DNA of 64,000 bases from a virus (lineage: Duplodnaviria > Caudoviricetes): IMG/VR virus record IMGVR_UViG_3300000169_000002, positions 1 to 64,000 of that record, one strand, 5' to 3'. The notes under the pieces were generated by a model. That model searched no databases, had not been told where the DNA came from, and was given only the letters and a program-made list of their open reading frames with translations. Shown here in pieces: positions 41 to 61,348 of the stretch (the stretch's first letter is position 1; every line of letters starts with the position of its first letter). A program made the translations under genes and the position numbers.

Positions 41-3000
41 TTAAATTTTTTCTCCATAAATTTCTTCATACATTTTCTTTACATTTTTCTTCATTCCTAC
101 CAAAATAGAGTTTATAAGCCCTGTTTTAATTGCACTAAATGTCATACGTGCGCCAAGGCTTATGACCCCGAGATAAGCATCAATTTTGTCTTCAGGATCA
201 GATAACAGGTAAGGTTCTTTTCCCTCTTCCCATACATCACAAGTAATTGCTTTACAAGCAATGAATGCTGCAAGTTTATCACCAATTGAGAAAGTGTCCC
301 TATATTTAATATAAATTTCTATTAAAATTCCATCTTTAGGCACTTTGGTCCCTTTTACTTTACCACTCAAGCCCGGATCAATATAATATACTTCAGTTAA
401 CGGAACATCAACTTCATTGGGGTTGACGTGAGAGGAGATTGCTTTAAGTCTATTTTTATTTTCTCTCTCATAATAATTAATAATATCTTGTACAGATTTA
501 CTATATCGTTCTTTTGGGGCGGTATAATATATCTTAATATCTTCAATTACTCCATTATATTTAGACGATATAATATTTCTTGAAGCTTCGTCCACATCGT
601 AATTAAGATCTTCATCTTGTACAAGATTAAGGAATTTATTAACAAGATCTTCTTCATATGAAGTGTCAAATATAATTAAGGGGTCGTTAACTTCTACTGT
701 ATCATTTTTCTTTACCATCTTTGAAATATTTGCATTAGGACCAAGAACGATGTCCTTTTTAATAACAATATGCGAACTGAGTTTATCAGAAAGGCGTTTG
801 GAAATTTTTGTAGAATCTTCAAATGTTTTAGAAGAATAGACAAGAGCAACCCGCGCTAATGGACCATGTATGAATACAGGATCTCCTGTCCATTTATCAA
901 TAGTGAAGAACTCTGGGTTATGTGCAATGAGTTTTCCAGCTTTAAATTTTTCGCCCTCTTTGACAAGAGGTTCAAGTTTATTAGATACAAAGAACCCCGA
1001 ACCGGAGTTTTTACCGATTTCAGGTTGCAGATTCAATACATCTTTAGTTCCATCATTATATTCCAGAACCAAAAGTTTATTTTTATCATCGATTTTGAGA
1101 ACTTTACCATCTTTTTTCGCTTTAAATACGAATGTATCTCCAATTATATGAGGCAAAACTTTTTCAAATCCGGTATACACTAGATTTCTATCAGAGCCTA
1201 CGCAAGCAAGTGTATGTCTGGATTGAGCAGAAGACATTGCAACCCGCTCCGGCTCATCTGATGTTATGGAGAATGGTAATGCGGCTTCTGCACCGCTGGC
1301 CAGATTAGAGGTTGTAAGTTTATTTAACTCTTCTTTACTTTCGACTACGTCAATATACCCACGAGAAGATACAATTCTTGCATCAACGGTAAGAGTACGA
1401 GCAATGCCAACCGACCCGGAAATCGGAGACGCTTGCGATATTACACCGGCCATGGTTGGATGGAAAGAACGTTTTGCAAGGTTGAACGATCTGTCTTTAT
1501 TCATACCGGCCGGACCTTTAAATGTCGTACTTCTCATCAAGTCAATAGTGTATAATGGGTTAAGGTCGCTATAGTCTTTAGTGACTTGGTTTGTAAGAAT
1601 TTTAACAATAACAGCATCTTTCTTAACAGAAAATTTCTTTGGAATAGACTTATCCGCAGTAAGGCGGTAATCTCCATAAGCTTTTGATAGAACGTCATAC
1701 AAAAATGCAGCTACCATCTCATTAGATCTTATTCTATGCATCCTCATATCGCCTTCATGTGTATACGAATTGTCTTCAAGCAGAGAGTTGGCGTAGAGGA
1801 ATACATCAATGAAGTCAGTAGGAAGATTAAAGTCTCTAAGAATTTCTTCAGTAATAGGATCAATGAACAATTGTTGATAGTTCTCGAATGCATATCCAAT
1901 ATTACTACGACCAAAGAGTGTGTCGAAGATCTCATGATAGACATCTTTGGTCAAAAATTGTTTTATTTCATACATTTTTGTAGGCACTTCTACAAGACCA
2001 TTCATAAGAAGAGTATTTCTAAGTGGATATACATCATAAATCAGCCACGCATCTGAAAATTCAATAATTTCTTCTTTGCCTTTATTATAACGAGGGGTAT
2101 TAGGAGATTCTTTTTTAGATATAATTTTGTAATTGATGTTTGCACGTTTCATGAGATTCAAAAGTCCGATAAGATATGCCAGTAAGAGAACAACCGGCAC
2201 TCTCTTTTCCATAATCAAAGATCTCGAATACATATATTTTTTACCTTTAGAAATCGATTTATAAATATCTTTAAAAGATTGGTCATAATGGGAAATTTCA
2301 TTAGCGATGAAATCAATAAGGTCAAGTTCTTTATCGGGTTTCTTATTTTTATCAGTACCAAGCACCACATTGTTAGTGGTGTCAAACCATATGACTTCAT
2401 TTTTATTAGTAATAGCCAAAGGAATTATATGATCAGTTCTATCTGGAAGAGGATATTTTAATTTTTCCATTTCTTTTCTGATATCATTCATGGATAAATA
2501 GATAGTCATATGGGGAAGAATAATTTTCCTATATTTAGATGCGACTTCATCATATTCGATAGTAGTTATATAAGCACTATTACCTTTTGCGGAACCCATT
2601 TCCAATTTAACTTTATTACTGGAAAGTTGTGAGAATTTCTTATACAATTCGATAACTTTTGGAGAAATATTCTGCCCGAATCGAGTGATAAATGTTTTCT
2701 TATAGTTAGTAGCAATTTGTACAGTATCAGGAGCAGTTTTAATAATAGGGAGCGGGATAATTTGATTGACCATGATCTTTTTATTCCCGCCGATTTTCAT
2801 AAATCGCCCATTTATAAATTTAGGAAGAAGAACAGTAAAGTTATGTCTTTTTCCATTTTCATCTTCAAAGATAAATGTATATTCTTCTACCTTATTAAGA
2901 GGATCACTTACATCCTTAACTTTTGTGTCGATCAAATAAAGAGGTCTATCTTTATATTGAAGGCTTGTCATCATAGAAACAATATCTTTCTTATAATGAT

Positions 3001-4213
3001 TTTTTAAGTATGCCTCATCAAAATTCGGGAAAGTCATCTTTTTTAAAGATGGATTGATAGTATTGATAGGAAATTCAACAGGATCAATTTTGTTAGATTT
3101 CGCACGAGATTGAATTTCTCCAATAGTCATATCATCAATTTTAAGATTTTTCATATTTTTAACAAGCTGCATTTCCCTGGCAAGTCTTGGTTTAGACCTC
3201 GGTAGAGTTTCATTCAACTGAGTATTAACTTTTTCAAGTTCCAGCTCTAATGGGGTTACGACAAAGTCAGGAATATTTTCTATTTCTTTATCCCTTAACG
3301 GAGCTGCAATCTTGTCTGCAGTTTTATTTATAAGATTATCCAAAGTTTCATCATCGAGATCCTCATCATTTACTAATTCATCGATTTTTTCTTTTAATTT
3401 GGTACGATTTTTTGCCTCAATAATTTCCTCAAGTTCATCCTCATCAGCGAGAGATTCGATATCTTCTCCTTCTTTAACAGGCCGAAGTTTAAGCCAAAGA
3501 GTTCTAAATACTTTATAAGTATCCTCATCAAAAGTTTCTGGAAGCATGAAGAATATTTGTCTATGGAATATGAAGAAAAACTTCCATCCCGAAAAATTCT
3601 TTGAAAAATACGAAGGATCTTCTTTCAATTTATGATAGAATATAGAAATAAAATTATCCGTCCGTCTAAGGTTAAAAATTGTCATATCTTTTATATCTTT
3701 TACCCAATAATCAATTGGGATGAATATACATTTATTATTGTAAGCAGACATATCAATTTTCTTAGTAATAAATTCTTTAAAGAGTCTGAAATATTCGTTA
3801 ACCCTTCTCATACCAATTCTGGAATCTTTGTTATCAAAAAATTCTTTAGTAAAGAAACTCATATCATGAATATAGTTTCTACCTTTAATTATACCATAAT
3901 TCAATGCTATTCTAAGATCAGGAATAATATTCTGTAAACGTTCTTCAAACATTTCTTTTAATTCAGTCTCAGGGATTCGATACCTGACAACTCTATTGTA
4001 GATCTTATAGTTAAATAACTTCTCATGGTAATAGAATCTTACAAGTCTCAGATCCCACATTGGATTTGTAAAAAATTTCAACGTATCTTCTTCTGTCTTT
4101 ACAATAGGCACATATACAGTTCCCTTTTCTTTACCCTTAACATTAAGTGGCAGGCGATATTTTACATTGCTTCTGTAAATGATATTAGGTTTCAGAAATC
4201 TTATATCTATCAA
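41..4213 (-). CDS. Multisubunit RNA polymerase beta subunit, N-terminal/middle part (probably virion RNAP)
   Basis: RpoB-like motifs HPTMAGVISQASPISGSVGI (cf. [20 protein letters not shown]), QSRHTL..YTGFEK (cf. MQRQAVP..GTGME), IGDKL...K and D......ARMT. Lacks the RpoB C-terminus. Late-type promoter upstream. Confidence 0.88.
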   Translation of the reverse strand: MIDIRFLKPNIIYRSNVKYRLPLNVKGKEKGTVYVPIVKTEEDTLKFFTNPMWDLRLVRFYYHEKLFNYKIYNRVVRYRIPETELKEMFEERLQNIIPDLRIALNYGIIKGRNYIHDMSFFTKEFFDNKDSRIGMRRVNEYFRLFKEFITKKIDMSAYNNKCIFIPIDYWVKDIKDMTIFNLRRTDNFISIFYHKLKEDPSYFSKNFSGWKFFFIFHRQIFFMLPETFDEDTYKVFRTLWLKLRPVKEGEDIESLADEDELEEIIEAKNRTKLKEKIDELVNDEDLDDETLDNLINKTADKIAAPLRDKEIENIPDFVVTPLELELEKVNTQLNETLPRSKPRLAREMQLVKNMKNLKIDDMTIGEIQSRAKSNKIDPVEFPINTINPSLKKMTFPNFDEAYLKNHYKKDIVSMMTSLQYKDRPLYLIDTKVKDVSDPLNKVEEYTFIFEDENGKRHNFTVLLPKFINGRFMKIGGNKKIMVNQIIPLPIIKTAPDTVQIATNYKKTFITRFGQNISPKVIELYKKFSQLSSNKVKLEMGSAKGNSAYITTIEYDEVASKYRKIILPHMTIYLSMNDIRKEMEKLKYPLPDRTDHIIPLAITNKNEVIWFDTTNNVVLGTDKNKKPDKELDLIDFIANEISHYDQSFKDIYKSISKGKKYMYSRSLIMEKRVPVVLLLAYLIGLLNLMKRANINYKIISKKESPNTPRYNKGKEEIIEFSDAWLIYDVYPLRNTLLMNGLVEVPTKMYEIKQFLTKDVYHEIFDTLFGRSNIGYAFENYQQLFIDPITEEILRDFNLPTDFIDVFLYANSLLEDNSYTHEGDMRMHRIRSNEMVAAFLYDVLSKAYGDYRLTADKSIPKKFSVKKDAVIVKILTNQVTKDYSDLNPLYTIDLMRSTTFKGPAGMNKDRSFNLAKRSFHPTMAGVISQASPISGSVGIARTLTVDARIVSSRGYIDVVESKEELNKLTTSNLASGAEAALPFSITSDEPERVAMSSAQSRHTLACVGSDRNLVYTGFEKVLPHIIGDTFVFKAKKDGKVLKIDDKNKLLVLEYNDGTKDVLNLQPEIGKNSGSGFFVSNKLEPLVKEGEKFKAGKLIAHNPEFFTIDKWTGDPVFIHGPLARVALVYSSKTFEDSTKISKRLSDKLSSHIVIKKDIVLGPNANISKMVKKNDTVEVNDPLIIFDTSYEEDLVNKFLNLVQDEDLNYDVDEASRNIISSKYNGVIEDIKIYYTAPKERYSKSVQDIINYYERENKNRLKAISSHVNPNEVDVPLTEVYYIDPGLSGKVKGTKVPKDGILIEIYIKYRDTFSIGDKLAAFIACKAITCDVWEEGKEPYLLSDPEDKIDAYLGVISLGARMTFSAIKTGLINSILVGMKKNVKKMYEEIYGEKI

Positions 4214-4384: not shown

Positions 4385-4645
4385 ATGGCTATAGCAGTTA
4401 CAGACGTAAATAAATCCACTATTATGAAGATGCTTCAAGTAGATGTATTTGGATTTTCTGCTGAAGAAATTGAAGAAAAGGCAAAAGAAGTTCATAATCT
4501 TGTAGTAAATGGCGATGATAGTCAAATTTCTTCTTCTAAATTTGTTGGAGGTTATGGCAGGACGAGTTCCGGCTGTATTGCTATCTATTATAATGGATAT
4601 TTTGATAATAAAGGAAATAAATCTTCTAAAAGTAAGCGCAAATAA
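4385..4645 (+). CDS. Hypothetical protein
   Basis: ORF 4337..4645; ATG at 4385 follows a GAAGG RBS and the early promoter. Confidence 0.6.
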   Translation: MAIAVTDVNKSTIMKMLQVDVFGFSAEEIEEKAKEVHNLVVNGDDSQISSSKFVGGYGRTSSGCIAIYYNGYFDNKGNKSSKSKRK

Positions 4646-5368: not shown

Positions 5369-5388
5369 ACGAAAAGGAGGTGTACATA

Positions 5389-8300
5389 TTGGCACTTTCG
5401 AAATCTTATTTGTCCAATCTGGGCAAATCATTATACTACTCTGCAAAAGAAGTAGTTAAAAATCAAATGCCAATTTTGACTGGTACTTATGAAAATAATA
5501 AAGAAATTTTTTCATCTGGAATTGAGTATACAAGAAGATTTGTGGCATCAAAAGGTGCAAGCAGCACCCATTCTTTAAGCAATATGGCTTCTCAATTTTT
5601 AAAAGATCTTGATGAGCTCAAGAAAAATGCATTTGAAGATCTTCGTTCTGGAAAATTAAATAACTTAGATCGTCAAATGGAGGAACTTGAAAAACAATTT
5701 GGCGGAGGATTCGATAGCGATCACGATTTTAGTTTTACCGACGCCGAAATTTCTTTCGAGGAAGATGAAAATTCTATTTCTATTAAGAATTCCCAAATTA
5801 GTGAAAAGAATTCCAATATGAGAACTAAAGCTTTAATGGAAACCATTATAGATTCTTCTGAAAAAACTGCCAACTATATAGTTGGCAATAATAGAAAATT
5901 GAATAGCATGTTTATGACTCTCTCTGCTCAAATGCATACTGAGACTATAAAAATGATGAGCGATACGAACAAGCTTTTGACTTCCATTGTTGAGTTTCAA
6001 AATAATCAAATTATTGATCACATGAATAAAACTCTTACTTTCTATGATAATGTACTTCAAGAATTAAGGGAAATTAAACAAGGTTTAATACCTAAACCTG
6101 AAGAAACGAAAAACCGTCCTATTACTTTTGATGATATTCTTACGAGCAGTGGATTAAATTTGAGAGCATATGGGGAACTGATTAAAAAGAATTTTTCTAA
6201 TTGGTTTGGAGGAACTACTTTAGGATTAGCGTTCTCCATGTCTAAAATGGCTGGAGATCAAGGCGTGTTTGGCGCTATTAAAAGCAATCCTATCGGGACA
6301 GTTCTCCAACTTATGATGTCCGGCCTGCTTCCGAAATCTGTCAAGACTGCAATGACTAAGCTTGATAATTCTTTAGCAGGTTTATTTTCAGCAATGATTC
6401 TTAGACTTAATAATATGAAAAATGATTTTTATAGTCCTTTCAGAGATATGATCGGATCTGTATTAGGAATAGATGTTCCGGGTAAAAGATCCATTGATAC
6501 GTCCAAATTCCATAAAGATATGATGCAATATAATGGACGGGCAGATAAAGCTATTACTGAGGTAATTCCAACTTTATTATCACATATTTTATCAGCCATT
6601 CAAGGAAGCAATAAGGTAATGCTGTATAACTATTCTAGTGGGAAATTTGTTGAAAAAGCCTCCGTTTCTTCTGAGCACGATAGTAGAATTCGCAGAAGCG
6701 CATTATTTGATATGTATGATTTAAGGTATGCTCTTAAAAATAGACTTGCTCAAGTCCAAGGCGGAACTTCTGAGTTCATGATGGATGAGCTTGACACTTT
6801 TCTTGAATATATCGCAAATGCGGGGAAATTTTATAATCCGTATCAGACAAAGAGCGCAAATGATTTAAGCGGTCTTAAACTCAGAGATTCCCGTTCATAT
6901 AATCTTATAAGGGCAGCATTCATGAGTCTTCCAAAATCAATGCAAAACAGGATAGCTACTGAAATTATAAGAGGTCGTATGGGATCGAGAAAAGTTATTG
7001 AAAATATTGAAGAAGAACTCAAAGAATCTGGTCTTGGAATAGCATATTCGGGTCTTCAATCTCCATCTATCCGAGTTAATACTTCTTATTCTATATCAAA
7101 TAAACTTTTGCGGGATATTAAAAATATCCTTATTGAGGGAATCAAAGTCGTTCAAATAGGTTATACTCCTGCTGCACCTACTGTTATTAAAAGAATTATG
7201 GGGCGGAAACTTGACAGAACTAATTACAATGTCACTACAGGAACTTCCACAAGTCAACCATCGGTTGCAACTAGCTCTCCTACCCCTCAAGGTAAAAGCG
7301 AGTTAGAGCAAGCCTTCCAAAAAAGTGAACAGCAATTACTTCGCGAGATGGCTATGGGAGCTGATCTCAGCTACTCTCCATCTCGTGCAGGATTCAAGAA
7401 CTTTGTTGAAAGAGTGACGAGTGAGAAATCTTTAAGGAATAAATTTAGGGTAATTAGAGAAAGTGTATCTCCAGGTAATATTATCTCCAAAGGGATAAAT
7501 AAACTTGACGAGTTTATCCATACGATATTATTTGGAAGTCACGGAAGAGAATCTTCCGATGATGAAGACGGTGATGGGGACGGAGGTCCCGCTTCAAGAA
7601 GCTTTTTCTCAAGAATGACTCAAAGAATATCCAATGCTATAGATAAATCGGTAAAATGGGTCGAAAGAAGAATCTTGACCCCGCTCCATGAGAAATTCTT
7701 TGGAGAAAACGGAATATTTACTAAATTCCAAGAAAGATTTACTCCATTTGTTGAAAAATTTAAGGATTTAGCAAGGTCTAAGTTTGAAAAATTTAAAGAA
7801 TTCTTTATGGGTTCTTTAAATAAGGAAGGTTTCTACACGGGTGGCATTTTTGCTGATATTGCAAATATGTTTAAAGATCAATCTAACCAGATAAGACATT
7901 TCTTTACTGGTGCAGGTTATACTAAATCCACTGGGGAAGTTGTGCCTGAGAATAAAGATACTTCTGTATTTGCATATGTGAAGAAATACACTAAAAATAT
8001 TATGGAAAATATTAAAACTGGTTTATTTGGTACTAAATATGAAGTCGATGAGGTTGATCCTGAAACTGGAGAGGTAAGAAAAGTTACGAGACGTAAGAAA
8101 GATGGTATTCTTTCAGCAGTTATGGATCAACTTAAGAGAACTTATCAAATATTTGATAACCTTTTTAAATCTAAGAAAGATGAGTCTGAAGAAGATGTTC
8201 AAAAGAATATAGAGCAATGGAAAAGAGAGCTTAAGGGATTCTTACCAAAAGGACTTGCAGGTGGGGCATTAGGTGCAGTATCTAGTGCTATATTACCTGG

Positions 8301-11300
8301 CGGTCCGGTGATGTGGGGTATCCTTGGTTCTACTGTCGCGTTTGCTAGCCATTCTAAAAAATTCAGGGAATTTTTATTCGGAAATGATGAAGAAGGCAGA
8401 CCCGGAATAATCCCGGCACACTATAAGAAAATTTTGAACGAAATAAAACAAAGTCTTCCTTCTATAATGGGCGGGGGGATAGTTGGCCTTGGTGCAAGTC
8501 TCATTCTCCCAGGTGGTCCATTATTGGGCCTTACCCTTGGCTCTGCTATCGGCTTCGCAGCAAGCTCTAAACGTATGCAAGAATGGTTGTTTGGTAAAAC
8601 TGATGAGAATGGTAATATTATAACTAAAGGAATTCTTGGGCCAGAATTTAAGGAACGAATTAAAGAAGTAGCCCCAGCAATGGGAGCCGGTGGAATTCTT
8701 GGGATGGGTGCTAGCATATTCTTACCCGGAGGGCCATTACTCGGATTGACCATCGGTTCTGCGTTGGGGTTTGCTTCTAAGTCTAAGAAAGTTCAAGAAT
8801 TGTTATTTGGTAAGACTGACGCAGATGGTAATATTATTACTAAAGGTTTGATTTCTCCAGCTATGCGCGAAAAAATTAATGAAATGCTGCCTAAAGGTAT
8901 GGCCGGTGCAGTATTTGGCGCATTGTCTGGATTGGTTAAAGGATCGTTCTTACCTGGTGGACCGCTTGTTGGTGCAATGGTAGGCGCATCCCTGTCAATA
9001 TTAGCAACTTCAGACAAATTTAAAGAGTTTATGTTCGGTAAAGTAGACCCTGAATCCGGAAAACGGGTTGGGGGATTGCTTGGAAATGTACGGGATTTTG
9101 TTCGTGATGAATTCTTAATTCCATTTAAAGGATGGGTTAAGAAGAAAGGTAAAGTTGTTGGCGAGTGGTTTGATGAAGCTATTAAAGCTCCGTTGATGTC
9201 TGCAATGCAACCTCTTAAAGCAGCATTCGGGGTTATTGGTAAAAATATTAAAGATGCATGGACCGACCTCAAGAAATCTTTTGTAAATGCTTTCCATGAA
9301 GTATTTACGAAGAATGTTGGTATTCCTCTTAAGAATTTCATTAAGGAGAATATAACTGATCCTCTGAAACGCACCTTGGATAAGTTCTTTAACTTCCTTG
9401 GTAGAGGATTATCTATGATTCTCACTGCTCCTATAAAGGGCCTAACCTTATTTGCAAAGTCTATTATAGATTCTGAAGCTGAGAAGACTGGAATGTCATC
9501 AGATGAAATTATTCAAAAGTATGGTGGGGAGAAAGATGAGCCGTCTGCTACTGGTGTGAAAACTAGTACGATGGTAAGTAAAACAAAAGAAATTATCTCT
9601 AAAGCTAGTATTGCTGGACTTTTGCCCGGTCCACAAATTGCAGGATATTTGCCTCCTGCAATGCCGCACCCAATGCATGGAGATAATATAGGCTATATGT
9701 TAAGAATTAACACATCCGCAGGAACTGGAGCTCCTAACAGCGCAGTAGCCCAGGCATTTGCTGAAGGTCAATCTAAGAACGTTGAAAGTATTAATCAAGA
9801 AAATGCCGGAATACCTAACGGTTATTATAGAACTATGCTTGATTATGTTAAAGATATAAGAGATGAAGTACATGGACAATTAGACGGCGTTGGTTACAAC
9901 GTCGAAACTATAGCAAATATCTTACTTGATCAATTTGGTCATCCTAGTGTATTTGCGAAAGGTATTAAAGGAGTAAGGGGTAACCTTAAGCGAAGAGGAT
10001 TTATGGGTCGTCTGATGGGGCTCCTCAAAAGTCCTTTCAAGCTCGCTAAAAATATCATTGTTAAACCAGTGCAATTGGTTCTTAATACTATCAAAAATAC
10101 TTTGATGAAAATTCCCAGAATGGTAGGAAGGGCTATCAGCTGGGCTGGAAGATCTGTTGGAAAAATTATTTCAATGACATCTAAGTCTTTAAGCGGTGCT
10201 GTAAAGCTCTTTGGAAAATCTGTTAAAGGTGTAACTAAAATGCTTCGTTCTATAGGAAAATTTGCTACTACACTATTAGATACCATAATTGTTAAACCCA
10301 CTAAAGCATTATTTAGAGCGTCAAAAGGAGTAATTAGAGGATTTGGAACTATCGCTAAAGGGTTTGGTGTCCTTCTTAAAGATACTGCATCCAGCATATT
10401 CAATCTTGCAAGAAAAGCCATTCCTGCATTGTCGAAAGGAATATTTAGCCTCACTAAAGGAATGATCAATCTCACTAAAACCGTTGGCAATGCTGTAGTT
10501 GGAATGGCCAAATTTGCTATGGGACTACTTGGCAAAGGATTTAGAGCTGCTGGTAGGTTATTCGGAGTCGGAAGGTCTGGAAAAATGGCCGGAAACTTTA
10601 CAGGATTATCAGGAAATCCTGTTTATGTAGTCGGCGGAACTCTGGATCTTGTAGATAGAGTAAGAGTTGTTGAAAAAATTGGAGCAGCCGATGATTATTC
10701 GACTAGCGGATTGTCTTTCAGAAGATGGATGAATAACAGAGGCGGAGTTGCTTCTAGTGCCACGCACTCACAAGATGTGGACACTCTTGAATCCGGAACT
10801 TCGGGAAGAGGTCGTTTCGCAGCATTCAAGCAAAAGACATTTAAAGCAGTTTCCATGTTTGCTAAAGCAGGTTCATATGTAGCAAGAATGGCTAGATCTA
10901 AATGGAATGATACTATCCCAAGAATTGCATTTATTGAAACTATGGCTAAAAATGTTAAAACGGAAAAAGATTATCATTATACAACCTTGGGGCTGTTACA
11001 TGAACTGGTAGTTTCCAACATTCAGATCTTAGAAGCCACAAATAAGTCTATCAGCGAGGAAAAAGGAAGCATATTTGACACTATTAAATCTATAGCTGAA
11101 ACATTAAAAAATGCGTGGCCATTATTGGCAGCAGCGTTATCCCCACTTTTGAGTGGTATACTTGGTGCCCTGGGAAGTCTTGGAAATCTTCTTAGAAAGT
11201 TAGGAGGTAGAATATTTGGAAGAGGCGGAAGTGCAAGAACTACCTCTGGAGGAGCCACAAGACCCCCAGCTGGAGGAACCACTTTTGTTGATATAGATAG

Positions 11301-14300
11301 AACTGCTCGCACTGGAGGGGGACCAAAAACTTTACCTCCGATTGGGACTTATATACCTCTTCCAAGTGGCGGCAGGGGTGGAACAACTGTAGCATTACCT
11401 CCGGGTCCATATATTCCTTTACCGAATGGAAGGGGAGGAACTATCCTCTCATTGCCCGGTGATGTTATTGATCCTGGTCCGGTTAGAAGGACAACTACTA
11501 CCACCGGCCCTATGAGGCCGAGAACATATATAGATGTGATTCCTGATAAAAATGGCGTATATCATGTAAAACCAAGTAAATGGGTTACCGCTGCTAGAAG
11601 AATTCCAATTGCTGGTGCCTTGTTAGGTGCTGGTATTATTGGTTATGATGCTTATAATATATTTACTGCCGGATCTGAAGAAGAAAAATATGAAGCTAAA
11701 AGGAATTTGTTTGGAACTCTTGGTAGCATGGCAGGGGGTGCAGCCGCAGGGGCCGGTCTCGGTGCCTTGTTAGGATCTTTCGCACCCGGTATCGGTAATG
11801 TTATTGGTGGTACTATAGGTGGCATCGGCGGGGCAATTATCGGAGAAGCTGGTGTAAGAAAGATATATGAAAAGAAAGATGATATTGGTCAATGGGCTAA
11901 AGATAAATATAATCAAATAAAGAATTTTACTACGGATACTGTGGGCAAATTCTGGAACAGTGCCCCAATTGAGACTGCAAGGAATTTGGCCACTGGCTTT
12001 GTTACAATGATTTCGGAAATCGTATCTGGCGTATATGATGCAACTGTGGATGTATTAAAATCGACTGGAAGACTGTTTGGAAGAATGTGGAGCAGTTTTA
12101 AAGAGTCTGCTAAAGAAAAATGGAATGATTATGTTGTTGAGCCTTATAATGAGTTTATGGGATGGATCAAAAAATCTCTCAAAAGCATTAAAGAAACTGT
12201 ATCTGAAAAATGGAATGAATATGTGAAAGAACCTATTAGAGAATTTAAGATTGCTATTTCAGAAAAATGGAAAGATATGAAAGAATGGATTAAAGATAGT
12301 TGGGATAGATACATCCCTGAGCCTTTGAAAAATTTCTTAAATACGGTTAAGACTAAATTTAATGAAACTAAAGAACTGGTTAGTGAAAAATGGAATGACT
12401 GGGTAGTTCAACCTTTGAAAAACCTTGGAAATAAAATTAAAGATCTGATTGATCGAGCTAAAGATTGGGTAAAGAATATATGGAATAGTATATGGGGAGA
12501 CAGAGGCGAATCTGCTAAAGAATCTATGGAAGAAGCCGGTAAGAAGACCGGTGAAAAAGCTCGTAAAATTGGTAGCGGTATAAGTTCTTGGATAGATTCT
12601 CTGTGGAATAAAGAAAAAGGTGGTGGCGACCCGGCATACGACCTCTCCTATGTATTAAAAGGAGCAGTTCCTGGGACTGACGCCACTGCTCAAGATTTGC
12701 CAATGATAGCTTCTATTGCTAATAGATTTGGTATTAACCCGCACTTGTGGATTGCTCTTGCGGAAACTGAAAGTAATCTTTATTCTAAAGCAACTAACCC
12801 GAAATCCACTGCAAGGGGTTGGGGGCAGATTCTTGAAGGTACAGCTAGAGATATTTACGAAAATAAATTAAGACTTGGTCGCTACAATCATAATATGGCA
12901 TTTGATAAGAATATAAATGCAACTCTGTCAATGGCGTATCTGAGACAGATGTTTGATACCTTTGGCGGGGATGCTACTAAAGCTATTATTGCATATAATG
13001 TAGGTCCTGGAAATGTTAAGAAGGGCATAGGATTACATGATACCGGAGGATATGGTGCTGGGCATGGTATAGAATATCTACAAAGAGTTATAAGGAACCT
13101 GAAAGAAAATACTGGATTGGATCTTAAAGACGTTGTTGATGCATCTAAGATGACCCCAATTGATTATGCAACTATTGGTGCGCTAAGTGGACTTTCAGCA
13201 TATGATGCTGCCTCTAGCGGTAGCGCTAAAGAATATACTATGTCCTCTATGCTTTCCAGCTTAGGTGCATACTTAAGTGGCGATAAGCTTAGGGAAGTCT
13301 ATGGATTTGATCCGTCTGAACTTTTATCTAATTTGGATAAAGAGCTGTTGAAGAAAACAGACCCATTCTATGCATCTGTGACCGGGACTGGCCTCGGGAC
13401 GGCTGGAGCGACCTATTATGCTGCAAGTAAAACTTATTCTAATTCTGATATAAACGCTGTTAAAGCTAGAAACTCTAAGCTTTATCCATTCGTATCTGGA
13501 GACAATGATATTCATGAATTCTTTGCTGAGCGCCTTAACAATTTGGCTAAGGCATATGGTAAACCTCTGAGTATCAACTCTGGTTATAGATCAGATCAAG
13601 AACAAATGCGCTTGATCAATGAATGGAGAGCTAAAAATCCTGGCAAATCTGAAGAAGAACGTAGAAAATGGGTTGCTGATCCTGGTAGAAGTAACCATGC
13701 TGTAGGTATAGCTGCTGATATCAGCGGATGGATTCAAAGTCTCCCAGATAGTGAGCTCGAAAAATTTGGACTTTATCGTCCAATGTCTTGGGAGCCATGG
13801 CACTTTGAGCCTATTGAAACTAAGATTTATGGAAGAACTCGTAATGAATTGATGCCATTGTTTGGCACCCCAGTGGAGCCAAATCCTAACCTGTCTAATT
13901 ACATTTCATCGCAGTTTAAAGGAACTAACTCCACAGGATTTATGCCAAACATCTCTTATGCATATAATGCCGCTTATCAAATGGGCGGCGGAGATCCTGT
14001 ATATGATAGAAATTTTGGACCTCCGGACATCTCTGGATATACAACTAAGGTTAAAGATGCTGTTTCGATCGCTTCTGATAAATCTAAAGATAATCTTTCC
14101 AAGATTGTCGAAATTCTGGCTCAAATTCTTATTGCAATCGAAAGCCTTGTTGATATTTCTGATGAATCTAAATCAATTCTTAAGGAGTATTTCAAAAATA
14201 TTATGGAATCCTCTGAAAATAGCCGACCCAGAACATCGTCACCAATTATAAATAACCCTAATACGCCTCCTGCTAATCCATTAATTGATGCTGGTACATC

Positions 14301-14364
14301 AACAAGAAAACGTAATGATAAGAGTAAAATTATAGCTCAGATTGCTAGAGGAACTATGTTCTAA
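5389..14364 (+). CDS. Giant tape-measure-like tail protein with soluble lytic transglycosylase and M15 (VanY-like) peptidase domains
   Basis: About 2990 aa; TTG at 5389 is spaced correctly from AGGAGG (ORF track starts at 5380). Gly/Ala hydrophobic repeats and Trp-periodic helical repeats. SLT motifs AETES, GWGQI, AYNVG; M15 motifs SGYRS, SNHAVGIAAD, EPWHFE. Confidence 0.88.
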   Translation: MALSKSYLSNLGKSLYYSAKEVVKNQMPILTGTYENNKEIFSSGIEYTRRFVASKGASSTHSLSNMASQFLKDLDELKKNAFEDLRSGKLNNLDRQMEELEKQFGGGFDSDHDFSFTDAEISFEEDENSISIKNSQISEKNSNMRTKALMETIIDSSEKTANYIVGNNRKLNSMFMTLSAQMHTETIKMMSDTNKLLTSIVEFQNNQIIDHMNKTLTFYDNVLQELREIKQGLIPKPEETKNRPITFDDILTSSGLNLRAYGELIKKNFSNWFGGTTLGLAFSMSKMAGDQGVFGAIKSNPIGTVLQLMMSGLLPKSVKTAMTKLDNSLAGLFSAMILRLNNMKNDFYSPFRDMIGSVLGIDVPGKRSIDTSKFHKDMMQYNGRADKAITEVIPTLLSHILSAIQGSNKVMLYNYSSGKFVEKASVSSEHDSRIRRSALFDMYDLRYALKNRLAQVQGGTSEFMMDELDTFLEYIANAGKFYNPYQTKSANDLSGLKLRDSRSYNLIRAAFMSLPKSMQNRIATEIIRGRMGSRKVIENIEEELKESGLGIAYSGLQSPSIRVNTSYSISNKLLRDIKNILIEGIKVVQIGYTPAAPTVIKRIMGRKLDRTNYNVTTGTSTSQPSVATSSPTPQGKSELEQAFQKSEQQLLREMAMGADLSYSPSRAGFKNFVERVTSEKSLRNKFRVIRESVSPGNIISKGINKLDEFIHTILFGSHGRESSDDEDGDGDGGPASRSFFSRMTQRISNAIDKSVKWVERRILTPLHEKFFGENGIFTKFQERFTPFVEKFKDLARSKFEKFKEFFMGSLNKEGFYTGGIFADIANMFKDQSNQIRHFFTGAGYTKSTGEVVPENKDTSVFAYVKKYTKNIMENIKTGLFGTKYEVDEVDPETGEVRKVTRRKKDGILSAVMDQLKRTYQIFDNLFKSKKDESEEDVQKNIEQWKRELKGFLPKGLAGGALGAVSSAILPGGPVMWGILGSTVAFASHSKKFREFLFGNDEEGRPGIIPAHYKKILNEIKQSLPSIMGGGIVGLGASLILPGGPLLGLTLGSAIGFAASSKRMQEWLFGKTDENGNIITKGILGPEFKERIKEVAPAMGAGGILGMGASIFLPGGPLLGLTIGSALGFASKSKKVQELLFGKTDADGNIITKGLISPAMREKINEMLPKGMAGAVFGALSGLVKGSFLPGGPLVGAMVGASLSILATSDKFKEFMFGKVDPESGKRVGGLLGNVRDFVRDEFLIPFKGWVKKKGKVVGEWFDEAIKAPLMSAMQPLKAAFGVIGKNIKDAWTDLKKSFVNAFHEVFTKNVGIPLKNFIKENITDPLKRTLDKFFNFLGRGLSMILTAPIKGLTLFAKSIIDSEAEKTGMSSDEIIQKYGGEKDEPSATGVKTSTMVSKTKEIISKASIAGLLPGPQIAGYLPPAMPHPMHGDNIGYMLRINTSAGTGAPNSAVAQAFAEGQSKNVESINQENAGIPNGYYRTMLDYVKDIRDEVHGQLDGVGYNVETIANILLDQFGHPSVFAKGIKGVRGNLKRRGFMGRLMGLLKSPFKLAKNIIVKPVQLVLNTIKNTLMKIPRMVGRAISWAGRSVGKIISMTSKSLSGAVKLFGKSVKGVTKMLRSIGKFATTLLDTIIVKPTKALFRASKGVIRGFGTIAKGFGVLLKDTASSIFNLARKAIPALSKGIFSLTKGMINLTKTVGNAVVGMAKFAMGLLGKGFRAAGRLFGVGRSGKMAGNFTGLSGNPVYVVGGTLDLVDRVRVVEKIGAADDYSTSGLSFRRWMNNRGGVASSATHSQDVDTLESGTSGRGRFAAFKQKTFKAVSMFAKAGSYVARMARSKWNDTIPRIAFIETMAKNVKTEKDYHYTTLGLLHELVVSNIQILEATNKSISEEKGSIFDTIKSIAETLKNAWPLLAAALSPLLSGILGALGSLGNLLRKLGGRIFGRGGSARTTSGGATRPPAGGTTFVDIDRTARTGGGPKTLPPIGTYIPLPSGGRGGTTVALPPGPYIPLPNGRGGTILSLPGDVIDPGPVRRTTTTTGPMRPRTYIDVIPDKNGVYHVKPSKWVTAARRIPIAGALLGAGIIGYDAYNIFTAGSEEEKYEAKRNLFGTLGSMAGGAAAGAGLGALLGSFAPGIGNVIGGTIGGIGGAIIGEAGVRKIYEKKDDIGQWAKDKYNQIKNFTTDTVGKFWNSAPIETARNLATGFVTMISEIVSGVYDATVDVLKSTGRLFGRMWSSFKESAKEKWNDYVVEPYNEFMGWIKKSLKSIKETVSEKWNEYVKEPIREFKIAISEKWKDMKEWIKDSWDRYIPEPLKNFLNTVKTKFNETKELVSEKWNDWVVQPLKNLGNKIKDLIDRAKDWVKNIWNSIWGDRGESAKESMEEAGKKTGEKARKIGSGISSWIDSLWNKEKGGGDPAYDLSYVLKGAVPGTDATAQDLPMIASIANRFGINPHLWIALAETESNLYSKATNPKSTARGWGQILEGTARDIYENKLRLGRYNHNMAFDKNINATLSMAYLRQMFDTFGGDATKAIIAYNVGPGNVKKGIGLHDTGGYGAGHGIEYLQRVIRNLKENTGLDLKDVVDASKMTPIDYATIGALSGLSAYDAASSGSAKEYTMSSMLSSLGAYLSGDKLREVYGFDPSELLSNLDKELLKKTDPFYASVTGTGLGTAGATYYAASKTYSNSDINAVKARNSKLYPFVSGDNDIHEFFAERLNNLAKAYGKPLSINSGYRSDQEQMRLINEWRAKNPGKSEEERRKWVADPGRSNHAVGIAADISGWIQSLPDSELEKFGLYRPMSWEPWHFEPIETKIYGRTRNELMPLFGTPVEPNPNLSNYISSQFKGTNSTGFMPNISYAYNAAYQMGGGDPVYDRNFGPPDISGYTTKVKDAVSIASDKSKDNLSKIVEILAQILIAIESLVDISDESKSILKEYFKNIMESSENSRPRTSSPIINNPNTPPANPLIDAGTSTRKRNDKSKIIAQIARGTMF
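8236..9090 (+). repeat. Four tandem ~70-aa repeats (LPGGP..G...G....AS.SK....LFG) inside the tail protein
   Basis: Repeats visible in the translation, e.g. LFGKTDENGNIITKG and LFGKTDADGNIITKG. Confidence 0.85.
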
Positions 14365-16279: not shown

Positions 16280-16987
16280 ATGATAATATTGTTAATTGAA
16301 TTATTCACAGATGGCTCATCTGTGACTAATGATAAGGTCAAAGCTAGTGCCGCAGCCTATGCTATATATATTCAAGATAGATTGATTAAAAATGGAACTG
16401 AATTTTATCAAAATGGAACTAATAATCTTGCAGAATCTTCTGCAATATTAATTGGTCTTGATAGAATAAATAAATTGATACGCAAGGTAGATAAAAAGTA
16501 TATAAATCTTCCTGTGACAATACATGTTTATTCTGATTCTCTTATTACAGTTGAATCCTGTAGAAATTGGATATACAAATGGGTGAAAAAATACAGAAAT
16601 GGGATCCTTTTAAATGCCCACGGGCAAGAAGTAGCAAACCAAGATATTTTTAAAAAAATTTATAACAAATATCTTACTAACGATATGTATTCTATAAAAT
16701 TTTTCCATATAAATTCACATAAAATCGACCATCATTTATATTTAAAATATTTTGATTACATTTCTGAATATTTTCAGAATAGACATAAAAAGAAAAAATT
16801 GAAATTGGATATTCCTAATGAATTATTTACAAACGATAAATTTAGAAAAGCTAAAAATAAATTTGAAAATGTGAATAAAATTTCTATAGAAGACGAAGAG
16901 TTGTTAAGGTTACTTATATATAATAAATATGTGGACAAACTCGCAGGAGAATGTCTGGATGAAGGGCTCTCAGAATTGGCAGTATAG
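16280..16987 (+). CDS. rnhA: Ribonuclease HI
   Basis: Catalytic motifs FTDGSS, TNNLAE, VYSDS, NKYVDKLA. Start is 16280 or TTG 16289. Confidence 0.85.
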   Translation: MIILLIELFTDGSSVTNDKVKASAAAYAIYIQDRLIKNGTEFYQNGTNNLAESSAILIGLDRINKLIRKVDKKYINLPVTIHVYSDSLITVESCRNWIYKWVKKYRNGILLNAHGQEVANQDIFKKIYNKYLTNDMYSIKFFHINSHKIDHHLYLKYFDYISEYFQNRHKKKKLKLDIPNELFTNDKFRKAKNKFENVNKISIEDEELLRLLIYNKYVDKLAGECLDEGLSELAV

Positions 16988-32215: not shown

Positions 32216-34168
32216 TTGGTGAGAGAGGGGATGTTAGGATTGACAGTAGAATTGGATGAAGAGCGACTTCCCCATGAATATCCAGAGAATACATCAATTT
32301 CTATGGGGACGGCAGGAAATATAAGACCTAATACGGGAAGATATAAAAAGATTCCTATAAAGTTTGATATTGAAACTTTGGACTTGCTGCTTGCTTATGC
32401 ATATGACGTAGATAATCAATTTATAACAAGATCAGCTCTTAATAATTTGTATAACTTGATAAGTTTATGCAATATGAATCTTTATAAAAATAATACTGCA
32501 CTTAGGACTAGAATTGAACTTTTGTCTTATATGCTTGAGGCTCGATTACATATGGGCTTCGATAATAAAAAGATTCTCTTGAATTATGCTTTGGATAATT
32601 GTGAAAATAAGAATCTAATCAGAGAAGAAATTCTTCCTGAGTTCAATAAGATAAAGTTGAATTCAAGGATGACTCAATATCTGAACTCATATGTTGCGGA
32701 TAGATTGATTTATGGATTCGTATTTTCATATAAAGATGAATTGTTTGAGATTTTTGAAGATTTGGAGTCTCATAACTATAAAACTCTGAGAGATATAAAT
32801 CAGAGAATTAAAGAGATAATTACGAATCTTCTATTTGATATTAGAAATGCTGAGAACTATGCACAAGATATTTCAACTTTGGATTTGACTGAAGGAAATT
32901 TTGAGAACATTGTTAAACAAATTGTGCAAAAATTGAGAGATCCGGGTAATAAACTTATTTCTGGCGTTCAAGCATTGAATATTATGCTTAACGGCGGTTT
33001 TGAAAGAAAAAGATCATACCTGTTTTTCGGTATGACCGGTGTAGGAAAATCAGTTCTGCTTTTGAATCTTCTTATTTTTATCAAGAAATGCAACCGGGTC
33101 AAACCGAAAGACCCGTCTAAAAGACCCGCAGCATTGTATATTTCTCAAGAAAATACAATTGAAGAAACAGTTGAACGGATATTTAATATGGAGGTAACCG
33201 GAGATGATATCCGGAACTATACTCCATCTGAAGTAGTTAAACTTTTGAGAACTAAAGGTGAAATGACTCTCAATTCTGATGACGATATTGATATTATTAT
33301 TAAGTATTATGACGATAAAGAAATTTCAACTCTGGATTTGTATTCTATCGTTAGTGACATTGAAGACACTGGTCGGGAAGTTATTGTAGTAATTCATGAT
33401 TATATTGAACGTATCAGGTCTTCAAAAGGTCTTCAAGAACTTCGTTTTGAACTTGCTGAAGTTGCTAACGATTATTCAGTCCTCGCAAAAAGATTGGAGA
33501 TTCCAGTCATTGGAGCGGGTCAGTTTAATAGAAAAGCCGCCGATACGATCGAGACTAATGAGGGAAATAAATATGATATCGGTAGGCTTTTGGGCAAGGC
33601 ACATATTTCTGAAGCTTATGCAATATTGAAGAACGTCGACTCGGCCATTGCGATTAATAAAGAAATTGATGATAAAGGCTATGAGTATATGACGTTCAAA
33701 GACATGAAGCAACGTTCGAATAAAAGAAAAAGAAATAAATTTGCAGACTATTTTGCACACCCTATTGATCCCGAGAATGGCATAAAACTTATTCCAGATA
33801 TTTATTTGGATGAGCCATTGTCAAGAGTCAGTCTTGATGAACTTATAGAAGAAAATGATATTATCAGCAGACGAAAACCAAAGAAAAGACAAGTCAAAGA
33901 ACTTCCCGTTCAAAAAGAAGAAAAACCGCAAACAACTGAAATTATTTCTGGTGATACCATCAAAGATTTTAAATTTCTCGGAGAAATTATCAACGAGCGC
34001 AAAAATATTAAAGATAAAATTGAGAAAAGACTTCGTAATGTTGACGAAGAAAAACTTGATGATATTATGAAAAGTTATGGTTCTTATGTTAGAAACAGTA
34101 ATGGATTCATAGTTATTAAAATGAACGAATCATTCTTCAAAAATAAAAAGGAATGGCAGGATTTTTGA
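32216..34168 (+). CDS. DnaB-like replicative helicase
   Basis: Walker A GMTGVGKS, YISQEN, HDYIE, GQFNR motifs; start may be 32231 or 32240. Confidence 0.85.
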   Translation: MVREGMLGLTVELDEERLPHEYPENTSISMGTAGNIRPNTGRYKKIPIKFDIETLDLLLAYAYDVDNQFITRSALNNLYNLISLCNMNLYKNNTALRTRIELLSYMLEARLHMGFDNKKILLNYALDNCENKNLIREEILPEFNKIKLNSRMTQYLNSYVADRLIYGFVFSYKDELFEIFEDLESHNYKTLRDINQRIKEIITNLLFDIRNAENYAQDISTLDLTEGNFENIVKQIVQKLRDPGNKLISGVQALNIMLNGGFERKRSYLFFGMTGVGKSVLLLNLLIFIKKCNRVKPKDPSKRPAALYISQENTIEETVERIFNMEVTGDDIRNYTPSEVVKLLRTKGEMTLNSDDDIDIIIKYYDDKEISTLDLYSIVSDIEDTGREVIVVIHDYIERIRSSKGLQELRFELAEVANDYSVLAKRLEIPVIGAGQFNRKAADTIETNEGNKYDIGRLLGKAHISEAYAILKNVDSAIAINKEIDDKGYEYMTFKDMKQRSNKRKRNKFADYFAHPIDPENGIKLIPDIYLDEPLSRVSLDELIEENDIISRRKPKKRQVKELPVQKEEKPQTTEIISGDTIKDFKFLGEIINERKNIKDKIEKRLRNVDEEKLDDIMKSYGSYVRNSNGFIVIKMNESFFKNKKEWQDF

Positions 34169-59467: not shown

Positions 59468-61348
59468 TTGCCGAACTATGTTAGTCAATTGGTAGCTAAA
59501 ATTTCTGATAAGATGGCTGTAGATGTTAATGATGACCTGTTTGATAGAAGAAAAGGAAAACAAATCTGGGAGTTCATTGCAGATGATTTAAAGTCTATCG
59601 AAATGCTTCCAGGTATTTTCGTAAGGGATGTCGAATATATTAGAGACCCCTCGAAAATAGATGTCAGACTCAATATCAGAAATGTCAAGAATAAGAAAAT
59701 TATAAAGAACCGAATAGAGAAGCTTATTCCGGTTCAACCTGACGTTTTTGACGCGATCAAATTCACTGTGGATATAGTTGGAGAGAAGAAAGTTGAAAAT
59801 ATAATTCTTCTCCCAAAATATATAGATCGTTATCATTTTATGATTTCAGGAAACAAAACTCTTGCAATGTTTCAAGTGGTTGATAATGCCACTTATAATC
59901 GAAAAGGTGAAGTTATCCTGAAGTCTAGAATACAGCTGAGACTTAGTAGAGAGGATAAGAGAAAAAGATACCATTTGATTTGTGTAGCGTCCGGGCAAGA
60001 ATTTAAAATCAATAATCTTGTGGTCAATCTGTTCAAGAAAACTTTCAATCCTCTCTATTATTTTGCAGCCAAAAAAGGAATTCTCGGGACTATCGACTTT
60101 TTCGGTTATACGAAATTTCTTAATGTAGTGACCGAAGTCAAGAATCCTGATTTGTTCTATTATTTCAGGGCAAATTCCAACATTCTTCTCGAAGCAGAGA
60201 AAACCCTGTTTGAAGAGGATGGGTTCCTCAGAACGTTTACTGGAATGCTCTGTCAGATCTTTAATAGTAGAAACAAAATCGAAGATATTTATGATGAAGA
60301 GTTGTGGGTTAAAAGACTTGGTTCTCTTTTCACATCAGCCGCTAAAAATCAATTGAATAAAGGTTATGACGTTCTCAAATCATTTGTAAACGTTCTCGAT
60401 TCTACGACTCAAAATGCCCTTCGTATTGATTACAAAGACAAAGCTGATATTTATTGTGTGCTTCGTTGGATGATGAGAGAGTTCAACGAACTTAGGAACA
60501 TGGATAATAATTCTCTTCTGAATAAGAGAATTCGTATAAACGAGTATATTGCTGCCTATTTTGGCCGATATCTCAAAGATAAAGTAAACTATGCTCTCAA
60601 CTTGAAGCCGTATGATAAAGAAAAACTTGCAAAAATCTTCAAGTTTGATGAACATATTCTTATCAAGTCTTTGTTCAGAGGAAAGAAACCATCTCCTCTA
60701 TTTAGGTACAATATTGATATCAATGATCTTCAGGCTTTGAATGGTCTGAAATTCTCGTTTACAGGTATTCAAGGTCTCCCATCTGATAAAGTTAAAGATG
60801 AGCAACGGGATATTTATCCGAGCCATCTTGGGAGATTTGAACTTAATGCTATTTCATCCAGCTCTCCTGGTATCTCCGGCATGCTTACTCCGTTCTGTAA
60901 GATTTATGATGGTGGGTACTTTGGAGAAGCGGAAGCTATTGAAAAGCCTTATGTCAAGAAGCTCTATAAGAGAATGGAAAAGATTAAAGAAAATGACCAG
61001 CTCTATGGAATGATCAAAGCTCACTATAAGAAAATTGAAGAGGAACATGAAAGACGCAAGTTCCTCATAAAATATCAAGATTTCAGAAACGAAAAAGGTT
61101 ATATTCAGATTACAAAACCGAAATATGTGCGTAACGATAAAGGATATATCCGCGTAGAAAGATTTGTTGACCCTTCAAGCTATATAAGAAATTCTAGAGG
61201 CTATATAGTTGTCAAACGCAGATTCCAGCTTATTAGGTTGAAAGTAAGATTAAAACCTGAATATATGTCTGGAACGTATATTCGCAACAATGATGGGTTT
61301 ATTGAAATCAAAATTAATGAAGACGGCCCGTTTAGTAAAAAAAGATGA
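59468..61348 (+). CDS. RNA polymerase beta subunit, N-terminal half (probably non-virion RNAP)
   Basis: LP...F.ISG, DNNSLLNKRIR, QRDIYPSHLGRFE..SSSSPGI (cf. VRDVHPSHYGRIC..ETPEGPNIG); complements 53631..55715. Confidence 0.87.
   Translation: MPNYVSQLVAKISDKMAVDVNDDLFDRRKGKQIWEFIADDLKSIEMLPGIFVRDVEYIRDPSKIDVRLNIRNVKNKKIIKNRIEKLIPVQPDVFDAIKFTVDIVGEKKVENIILLPKYIDRYHFMISGNKTLAMFQVVDNATYNRKGEVILKSRIQLRLSREDKRKRYHLICVASGQEFKINNLVVNLFKKTFNPLYYFAAKKGILGTIDFFGYTKFLNVVTEVKNPDLFYYFRANSNILLEAEKTLFEEDGFLRTFTGMLCQIFNSRNKIEDIYDEELWVKRLGSLFTSAAKNQLNKGYDVLKSFVNVLDSTTQNALRIDYKDKADIYCVLRWMMREFNELRNMDNNSLLNKRIRINEYIAAYFGRYLKDKVNYALNLKPYDKEKLAKIFKFDEHILIKSLFRGKKPSPLFRYNIDINDLQALNGLKFSFTGIQGLPSDKVKDEQRDIYPSHLGRFELNAISSSSPGISGMLTPFCKIYDGGYFGEAEAIEKPYVKKLYKRMEKIKENDQLYGMIKAHYKKIEEEHERRKFLIKYQDFRNEKGYIQITKPKYVRNDKGYIRVERFVDPSSYIRNSRGYIVVKRRFQLIRLKVRLKPEYMSGTYIRNNDGFIEIKINEDGPFSKKR

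Follow-up and report, generated by a model that had tools for sequence, protein, structure and literature searches.

Why should two phage enzymes with unrelated catalytic cores, an RNA polymerase (RNAP) subunit and a replicative helicase, carry nearly the same short peptide in their tails? The question is raised by the window analyzed here, which spans the first 64 kb of a viral contig with a length of 93,836 bp and 35% GC (IMG/VR record IMGVR_UViG_3300000169_000002), in which the beta-N subunit of a non-virion RNAP and a DnaB-like helicase both bear the motif Y-x-R-N-x-x-G-[YF]-I-x-[IV]. Relatives in IMG/VR with 72-84% protein identity lie on contigs as long as 207 and 247 kb, and the contig is therefore a piece of a jumbo phage genome, with an estimated completeness of 44%. 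The best-supported answer, which we advance tentatively and at somewhat less than even likelihood, is that the motif is a portable tag docking to a shared, co-evolving partner. The copies themselves are real, lie outside the catalytic folds, are portable, are conserved at the protein level and vary in concert across lineages.

Scans of all six frames, in the window and in the complete contig, placed the motif on beta-N, on the DnaB-like helicase and on a superfamily II (SF2) helicase encoded beyond the window:

59468..61348 (+): open reading frame (ORF) of the non-virion RNAP beta-N subunit, 626 residues from a TTG start, assigned by phrog_2943, tblastn and PDB 7S00
60929..61081 (+): charged linker of beta-N from core to repeats, residues ~488-538, without counterpart in AR9 gp105
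61082..61111 (+): tag repeat 1, FRNEKGYIQI, a looser form found in the six-frame scans and kept in relatives
61124..61156 (+): tag repeat 2, YVRNDKGYIRV, strict motif, kept in relatives
61181..61213 (+): tag repeat 3, YIRNSRGYIVV, strict motif, kept in relatives
61277..61333 (+): tag repeat 4, extended form YIRNNDGFIEIKINEDGPF, strict motif at 61277-61309, kept in relatives
32216..34168 (+): ORF of the DnaB-like replicative helicase, 650 residues, assigned by Pfam divDNAB and DnaB_C and by phrog_19
33839..34084 (+): charged linker of DnaB, ~80 residues, past the Pfam and PHROG matches and before the tag
34085..34138 (+): DnaB tail tag, extended form YVRNSNGFIVIKMNESFF, strict motif at 34085-34117
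L002:7004-8581, outside the window: SF2 helicase (ResIII, Helicase_C), ortholog of the AR9 protein annotated 'DNA/RNA helicase of superfamily II'
contig 87117-87149, outside the window: SF2 helicase tag, strict motif, from the six-frame contig scan

The strict pattern [YF].RN..G[YF]I.[IV] occurs at five sites only in the contig, three in beta-N, one in the DnaB-like ORF and one in the SF2 helicase, against 0.002 expected from residue composition; for the core R[ND]xxG[YF][IVL]x[IVL], six sites were observed and 0.12 expected on the same basis. Once the looser first repeat is counted there are six copies (four in the beta-N tail, one in the DnaB-like tail and one in an SF2 helicase insertion), and a scan of the whole genome of a complete relative, G001, found the motif in beta-N, DnaB and SF2 only. 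The module spans ~11-25 residues around the core R-N-x-x-G-[Y/F]-I-x-[I/V]. An extension, N-x-x-G-x-F followed by Lys/Arg, is common to beta-N repeat 4, the DnaB and SF2 helicase copies and the copy on a small ORF of the relative G002; an amphipathic basic stretch, RRFQLIRLKVRLK, comes after beta-N repeat 3. Across relatives the copies are kept down to ~55% identity.

Residues 18-505 of beta-N match phrog_2943 (E 1.6e-24), tblastn retrieves the non-virion RNAP beta-N of AR9, PBS1, S6-like Staphylococcus phages and phiR1-37, and residues 76-487 align to AR9 gp105 (PDB 7S00 chain c, 496 residues; E 2.9e-48). The form in the database cluster has 611 residues, which suggests that the true start is Met16 at about 59513. 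AR9 gp105 stops ~20 residues past the last aligned position, in an acidic peptide, ...EINLNIDDISIDEVIES, with no hairpin repeats; because it ends so close to the aligned core, the last 139 residues of beta-N, comprising the charged linker and the four repeats, are, judged from this alignment, an add-on specific to the uncultured clade. From about residue 502 the linker is predicted to be helical (AlphaFold2 (AF2) gives a helix at 2-35 of a tail construct starting at 60968). All four repeats are retained in relatives of 72-84% protein identity, as are the DnaB and SF2 tags. In two more distant ones, G006 and G007 (57-61% beta-N identity), beta-N has three repeats, DnaB is tagged and the SF2 insertion is missing. 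Separately, among the beta-N orthologs of other lineages (L123-L138, P0105-P0109) several have one hairpin-like peptide at their C-terminus (...EDSGLIRYE, ...EGSGLIYYE, ...TPSGYLVVFDNE, ...KDTRGITMSITTL). An older element at the C-terminus of this subunit may be the source of the last beta-N repeat.

The DnaB-like ORF matches Pfam divDNAB (PF20307) over residues 227-541 with 68.7 bits against a cut-off of 26, and DnaB_C with 41.2 bits against a cut-off of 27; its tail tag is conserved in orthologs of 51-80% identity. DnaB matches in relatives contain one in-frame TGA (G001, G003) or TAG (G002) near the N-terminal match end (L010/L011, L012), which probably only marks a later start codon. The original prediction had named both enzymes, quoted their motif peptides, set both tails beyond the conserved folds and proposed that proteome and relatives be scanned for further copies. 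The family and AR9/PBS1/S6 matches bear out both identities, the quoted peptides all recur letter for letter in the scans, and the core matches end well short of the tails (18-505 of 626 residues in beta-N, 227-541 of 650 in DnaB). The motif is retained in orthologs of both proteins, and the scans confirmed the contig sites and revealed a tagged set wider than RNAP plus DnaB.

In an alignment of 58 orthologs the SF2 helicase copy sits within a clean ~30-residue insertion just ahead of the GK[LI]L[IV]L strand in the second RecA domain, and this insertion is present in 9 of the 58 (at least 56% identity) and absent from the 49 more distant ones. Such a pattern rules out the concern that the copies are integral parts of their carriers' own folds, and since G006 and G007 are tagged on beta-N and DnaB and have no SF2 insertion, the SF2 copy was gained later. 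Where copies within this genome have identical residues, their codons differ. Between DnaB and SF2, 9 of 11 residues agree, yet only 2 of the 9 codons at those residues are the same; this excludes recent DNA copying or gene conversion between them, and the similarity is therefore maintained at the protein level.

Further carriers came to light through a small profile search of five whole genomes, followed by BLAST of the matches. Taken over all carriers, the tag stands at either terminus or in an internal loop. The features concerned are:

4385..4645 (+): small 86-residue protein with a Lys-rich C-terminus, encoded by a divergent neighbour of the virion-RNAP beta gene
4553-4603 (+): variant tag YGRTSSGCIAIYYNGYF in the small 86-residue protein, from profile search and BLAST
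41-4213 (-), in the window: ORF of 1390 residues matching the phage RNAP beta subunit families phrog_14872 and phrog_3148
L020:1865-3103 (G001 81465-82703), not on the present contig: Lys-rich coiled-coil protein of 413 residues with poly-Lys tracts
L182:8500-10002 (-), in G012: reverse transcriptase (RVT_1, phrog_1423) with a tag of the G012 flavour, described below, after the RT domain
L175:11047-11700 (+), in G012: HNH endonuclease (phrog_59) with a tag of the G012 flavour

The G007 ortholog of the small 86-residue protein has a canonical tag, MYVRNENGFIRL, and its positional counterpart in G012 terminates in RDTDGFMVLVPRA. G002 adds a small ORF with a C-terminal tag, whose sole detected similarity is to two G012 ORFs and which we read as a putative HNH/AP2-like DNA-binding protein; G007 adds a PC4-like single-stranded DNA-binding protein (Pfam PC4 matches the G001 ortholog) and a small protein. 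The N-terminus of the Lys-rich protein bears R-[SGDN]-x-x-G-[FY]-I-[KR]-[VIL] in nearly all of its 25 homologs. It has orthologs in 12 of the 22 related jumbo-phage genomes that were searched, with the N-terminal tag confined to the orthologs of tag-bearing genomes. AF2 (25 sequences) predicts long coiled coils for this protein and, with confidence, a beta domain of ~65 residues at the C-terminus, with a predicted local distance difference test score (pLDDT) of ~88; neither Pfam nor PHROG matched it, and Foldseek against PDB and the ESM Atlas was uninformative.

A further comparison is with G012 and the metagenomic proteins P0104 and P0106, which share 27-30% beta-N identity and carry another flavour of the module, R-D-x-D-G-F-x-x-L-x-[P/R], with 8 strict copies in G012 against 0.03 expected. 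This flavour occupies orthologous sites, namely the beta-N tail (four copies), the DnaB tail (one), the N-terminus of the Lys-rich protein and the C-terminus of the small protein, so that two deep lineages tag four orthologous protein families at identical sites, and each lineage does so in its own flavour. The G012 flavour also stands at the N-terminus of other proteins that matched no family, and its presence on the HNH endonuclease and the reverse transcriptase suggests that mobile-element enzymes acquired the phage's own tag. Its turn holds two Asp (D-x-D), often with more acidic residues ahead. A side observation is that the window ORF at 41-4213, probably a fused virion-RNAP beta subunit by its family matches, has a G012 ortholog with an internal G012-type copy, KDARGFIEI; no RNAP subunit other than this one was identified besides the non-virion beta-N.

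A genome scan of G011 found no copy of either flavour. In this and two other tag-free genomes (G008, G011 and G022; L142, L141 and L143) the DnaB tails end in acidic-aromatic peptides (…DSDIFEF…, …EEDLFDF…, …DDDFEPFDF…), a known type of protein-docking tail, as in T7 gp4 and the single-stranded DNA-binding protein SSB. The DnaB tail of the present phage, ...YVRNSNGFIVIKMNESFFKNKKEWQDF, is of another kind, a predicted hairpin plus basic residues in place of an acidic tail with a terminal aromatic. A weak likeness, noticed post hoc, links the beta-N C-terminus of G011, KYFIKININDG, to the N-terminal QYTININMP of the Lys-rich protein in that genome.

We then examined conservation across ~78 non-redundant instances, in which Arg2 and Gly6 are fixed by the search pattern. 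Ile8 is kept in ~90% and I/V/L at position 10 in 93%, Asn3 in 64% and an aromatic residue at position 7 in 74%; position 9 is mainly Lys, Gln or Arg. Position 7, where close relatives substitute L, N, C, H or R, is the least conserved core position. In the inferred two-stranded hairpin with an N-x-x-G turn, positions 8 and 10 would form a hydrophobic face and positions 2, 7 and 9 would lie opposite. The acidic D-x-D turn of G012 fits protein docking better than contact with nucleic acid.

Based on these observations we propose that the module would be a small beta-hairpin, with a first strand ending in Arg, an N-x-x-G turn and a second strand [Y/F]-I-x-[I/V], that is attached via flexible charged linkers or inserted in surface loops of phage proteins acting on DNA or RNA. 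Through its invariant Arg and the hydrophobic face of positions 8 and 10 it would engage a single shared, co-evolving partner, which might be a dedicated receptor or simply more of the same tags. The tag would concentrate the non-virion RNAP (multivalent, with 3-4 copies), the hexameric DnaB, the SF2 helicase and accessory DNA-binding proteins on replicating phage DNA, and the selfish HNH and reverse-transcriptase genes of relatives would have picked it up to reach the same place. We infer docking to a protein, and with it such a partner and its location, because of the placement in linkers and loops, the portability, the concerted switching of flavour and a hydrophobic face that a lone hairpin cannot bury; further grounds are the acidic turn of G012 and the classical acidic docking tails that replace the tag in tag-free lineages. 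Change in concert across several proteins is what a common binding partner predicts.

Several points weigh against docking. Phyletic profiling set the ORFs of G001 against three tag-bearing genomes (G002, G007 and G012) and the tag-free G011, and no clean receptor candidate emerged from these five genomes: there were 8 candidates, and the ones to which a name could be given are virion or tail proteins. The candidate of most interest proved to be one more client with a tag, and its orthologs occur in tag-free genomes as well. The AF2 model of the four-repeat beta-N tail (7 sequences) has a pLDDT of 55 and no ordered domain, so that the beta-hairpin of the original prediction, plausible from the N-x-x-G turn pattern, was modelled only weakly. 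All tagged proteins of known function handle nucleic acid, and direct nucleic-acid binding also explains this distribution; a hairpin face with Arg, an aromatic residue and Lys/Arg would also suit such binding. The concerted change is seen in two deep lineages only, that is, in few independent events, and the clade is uncultured and known from sequence alone.

A single complex prediction of the C-terminal domain of the Lys-rich protein with the beta-N repeats and the DnaB tail scored 0.00 and weighs neither way. A clamp of the gp45 or PCNA type was sought with PF02916 and PF00705, which were unmatched in G000, G001, G002, G007 and G012, a search that a cryptic or host clamp would escape; phiKZ gp54, as chimallin, was likewise unmatched in five genomes at E up to 1, in a single-sequence search without a positive control. 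Recent papers on Rhc (PMC13648698, PMC13648687) show that in chimalliviruses replication and transcription can draw on one and the same factor, and they describe no such tag. The window has an RNase HI domain:

16298-16723 (+), in the window: RNase HI domain (PF00075, 43 bits) inside a 266-residue open frame

The frame is conserved in G001, G002, G007 and G012 and has a C-terminal extension of ~90-130 residues; we rejected it as the bearer of a clamp-like domain of the Rhc type (PMC13648698) as too short. Pfam and PHROG scans of the beta-N and DnaB tails returned nothing meaningful, and phmmer with the 96-residue beta-N tail against 1.84 billion representatives returned two orthologs of beta-N, a single spurious repeat protein and nothing else; the module is untraceable by this method because it is too short. 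YD repeats, NUMOD4, choline-binding repeats and EF-hand loops, considered as likenesses, were rejected as none has profile support. The searched literature, a comparative review of jumbo phages (PMC7824862) included, holds no prior description of the motif.

The main rival, in our judgment unlikely on balance, is that the hairpin is a minimal single-strand nucleic-acid-binding module comparable to the beta1-beta2 RNP1 hairpin of cold-shock domains. It would strengthen the hold on ssDNA or RNA of enzymes whose work is already with these, and the four RNAP copies would grip nascent RNA or the non-template strand. The recognizable carriers do mostly act on single strands (RNAP, DnaB, SF2, PC4-like, HNH and reverse transcriptase), one face of the predicted hairpin presents Arg2, Tyr/Phe7 and Lys/Gln/Arg9, Lys/Arg runs often come after the tags, and the spacing seems to resemble the W-F-N-x-x-K-G-F-G-F-I of the cold-shock domain. 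However, the aromatic position 7, on the face that would touch the nucleic acid, is the least conserved core position and the opposite, hydrophobic face the best conserved, and the G012 turn has two Asp, often preceded by more acidic residues. A generic ligand also gives no reason for at least four proteins to switch flavour together, and scans of both tails for the cold-shock domain, the RNA recognition motif (RRM) and other nucleic-acid-binding Pfam families found none at E up to 1.

Docking also has a variant that needs no receptor gene, in which the tags bind one another as homotypic beta-sheet 'stickers' on charged spacers, through which the multivalent carriers would condense into a replication-transcription factory; we consider it improbable. 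It would account for the long charged or coiled-coil linkers on which the tags sit, for a valency that varies with the carrier (3-4 on RNAP, 6 on hexameric DnaB, and the coiled-coil Lys-rich protein) and for the lack of a receptor gene with a matching pattern of presence and absence, and a concerted change of flavour is expected if tags recognize each other. Yet AF2 built no sheet from the four tandem hairpins, which weighs against the putative self-association. That the copies have no common function and are structural pieces each of its own protein, for instance a beta-N end pairing with another RNAP subunit at the split site, alike through convergence towards a stable hairpin sequence, is very improbable and disfavoured by the comparative data: many beta-N orthologs do end in a single hairpin-like peptide (SGLIRYE, SGLIYYE, DTRGITMSI), so that the last repeat may have an older RNAP role, and a cross-strand Arg/aromatic pair together with N-x-x-G generally favours a hairpin, but the genome-wide count of the motif exceeds expectation more than 1000-fold, unrelated proteins of one genome share one flavour and orthologous sites in the other lineage the other, the SF2 insertion is a clean lineage-specific gain, and the single copies cap long charged linkers with no core to pack on.

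Docking to a shared partner thus remains the reading that we prefer. Of the shared docking motif proposed in the original prediction, an appended, conserved and co-varying module has emerged; the searches brought out no common hub, and the coupling of replication to late transcription stays speculative. The tagged set fits a general recruitment or access tag better than a dedicated coupling device, because the carriers include SF2, Lys-rich, small Lys-tailed, PC4-like, HNH and reverse-transcriptase proteins. A stronger version, which we think rather unlikely, is a tag-and-receptor system in which the ~11-25-residue hairpin would be necessary and sufficient for delivery to a phage-built, chimallin-free replication-transcription hub or compartment, with HNH and reverse-transcriptase genes hijacking it and flavours co-evolved by lineage.

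How RNAP, helicases and repair proteins of jumbo phages come to be located together on the replicating genome is little understood outside the nucleus-forming Chimalliviridae. The tag occurs on at least four proteins in this phage and at least ten in a distant relative, with a lineage-specific flavour; a short tag shared in this way makes the question testable. If it is a docking tag, it defines the client list of a hub, and mobile endonuclease and reverse-transcriptase genes copy a viral address label; if the tag-and-receptor version is true, it would be a portable localization signal for jumbo phages that form no nucleus. If it binds nucleic acid, it would be among the smallest portable modules of that kind.

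Two other genes of the contig deserve mention. An ORF of 2994 residues at 5380-14364 (+) in the window, perhaps for a tape-measure or ejection protein, has Gly-rich repeats and a C-terminal region that, on a reading of the translation only, resembles lytic transglycosylase/peptidase domains. A 400-residue ORF at L002:5570-6772 (contig 84570-85772) reads like ThyX, the flavin-dependent thymidylate synthase, with an RHR-type motif. AR9, whose type of RNAP is found here, has uracil DNA (dU-DNA); synthesis of thymidylate (dTMP) by the putative ThyX would argue against such DNA in this clade.

Among known systems, the AR9 non-virion RNAP beta-N gp105 (PDB 7S00, 7S01, 7UM0, 7UM1) shares a homologous core in a split-subunit RNAP and is without the repeats. 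Cargo-targeting peptides of encapsulins, microcompartments and phage capsids are likewise portable tags at either terminus whose flavour co-varies with lineage; the clients here, however, are replication and transcription enzymes and not virion or metabolic cargo, and no compartment is known here. Closer in kind are the clamp-binding motifs (the PIP box, the bacterial QL[SD]LF and the gp45-binding tails of T4 gp43, gp33 and gp55), which like the tag are short modules at the termini or in loops of many DNA enzymes and which gather these enzymes at one hub. In T4 the gp45 hub serves both replication and late transcription, and a group II intron reverse transcriptase reportedly uses the clamp. 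The tag departs from these motifs in being a predicted hairpin with an N-x-x-G turn rather than an extended or 3-10 peptide, and Y-x-R-N-x-x-G-[YF]-I-x-[IV] matches neither QxxLxxFF nor QL[SD]LF nor a gp45-binding tail; moreover, the RNAP here bears 3-4 tandem copies, and no gp45/PCNA clamp was detected in the five genomes. With the tails of T7 gp4, T7 gp2.5 and bacterial SSB the likeness is that of a flexible docking tail on a hexameric replicative helicase, whereas the tag is a basic/hydrophobic predicted hairpin that is found on an RNAP and other proteins as well.

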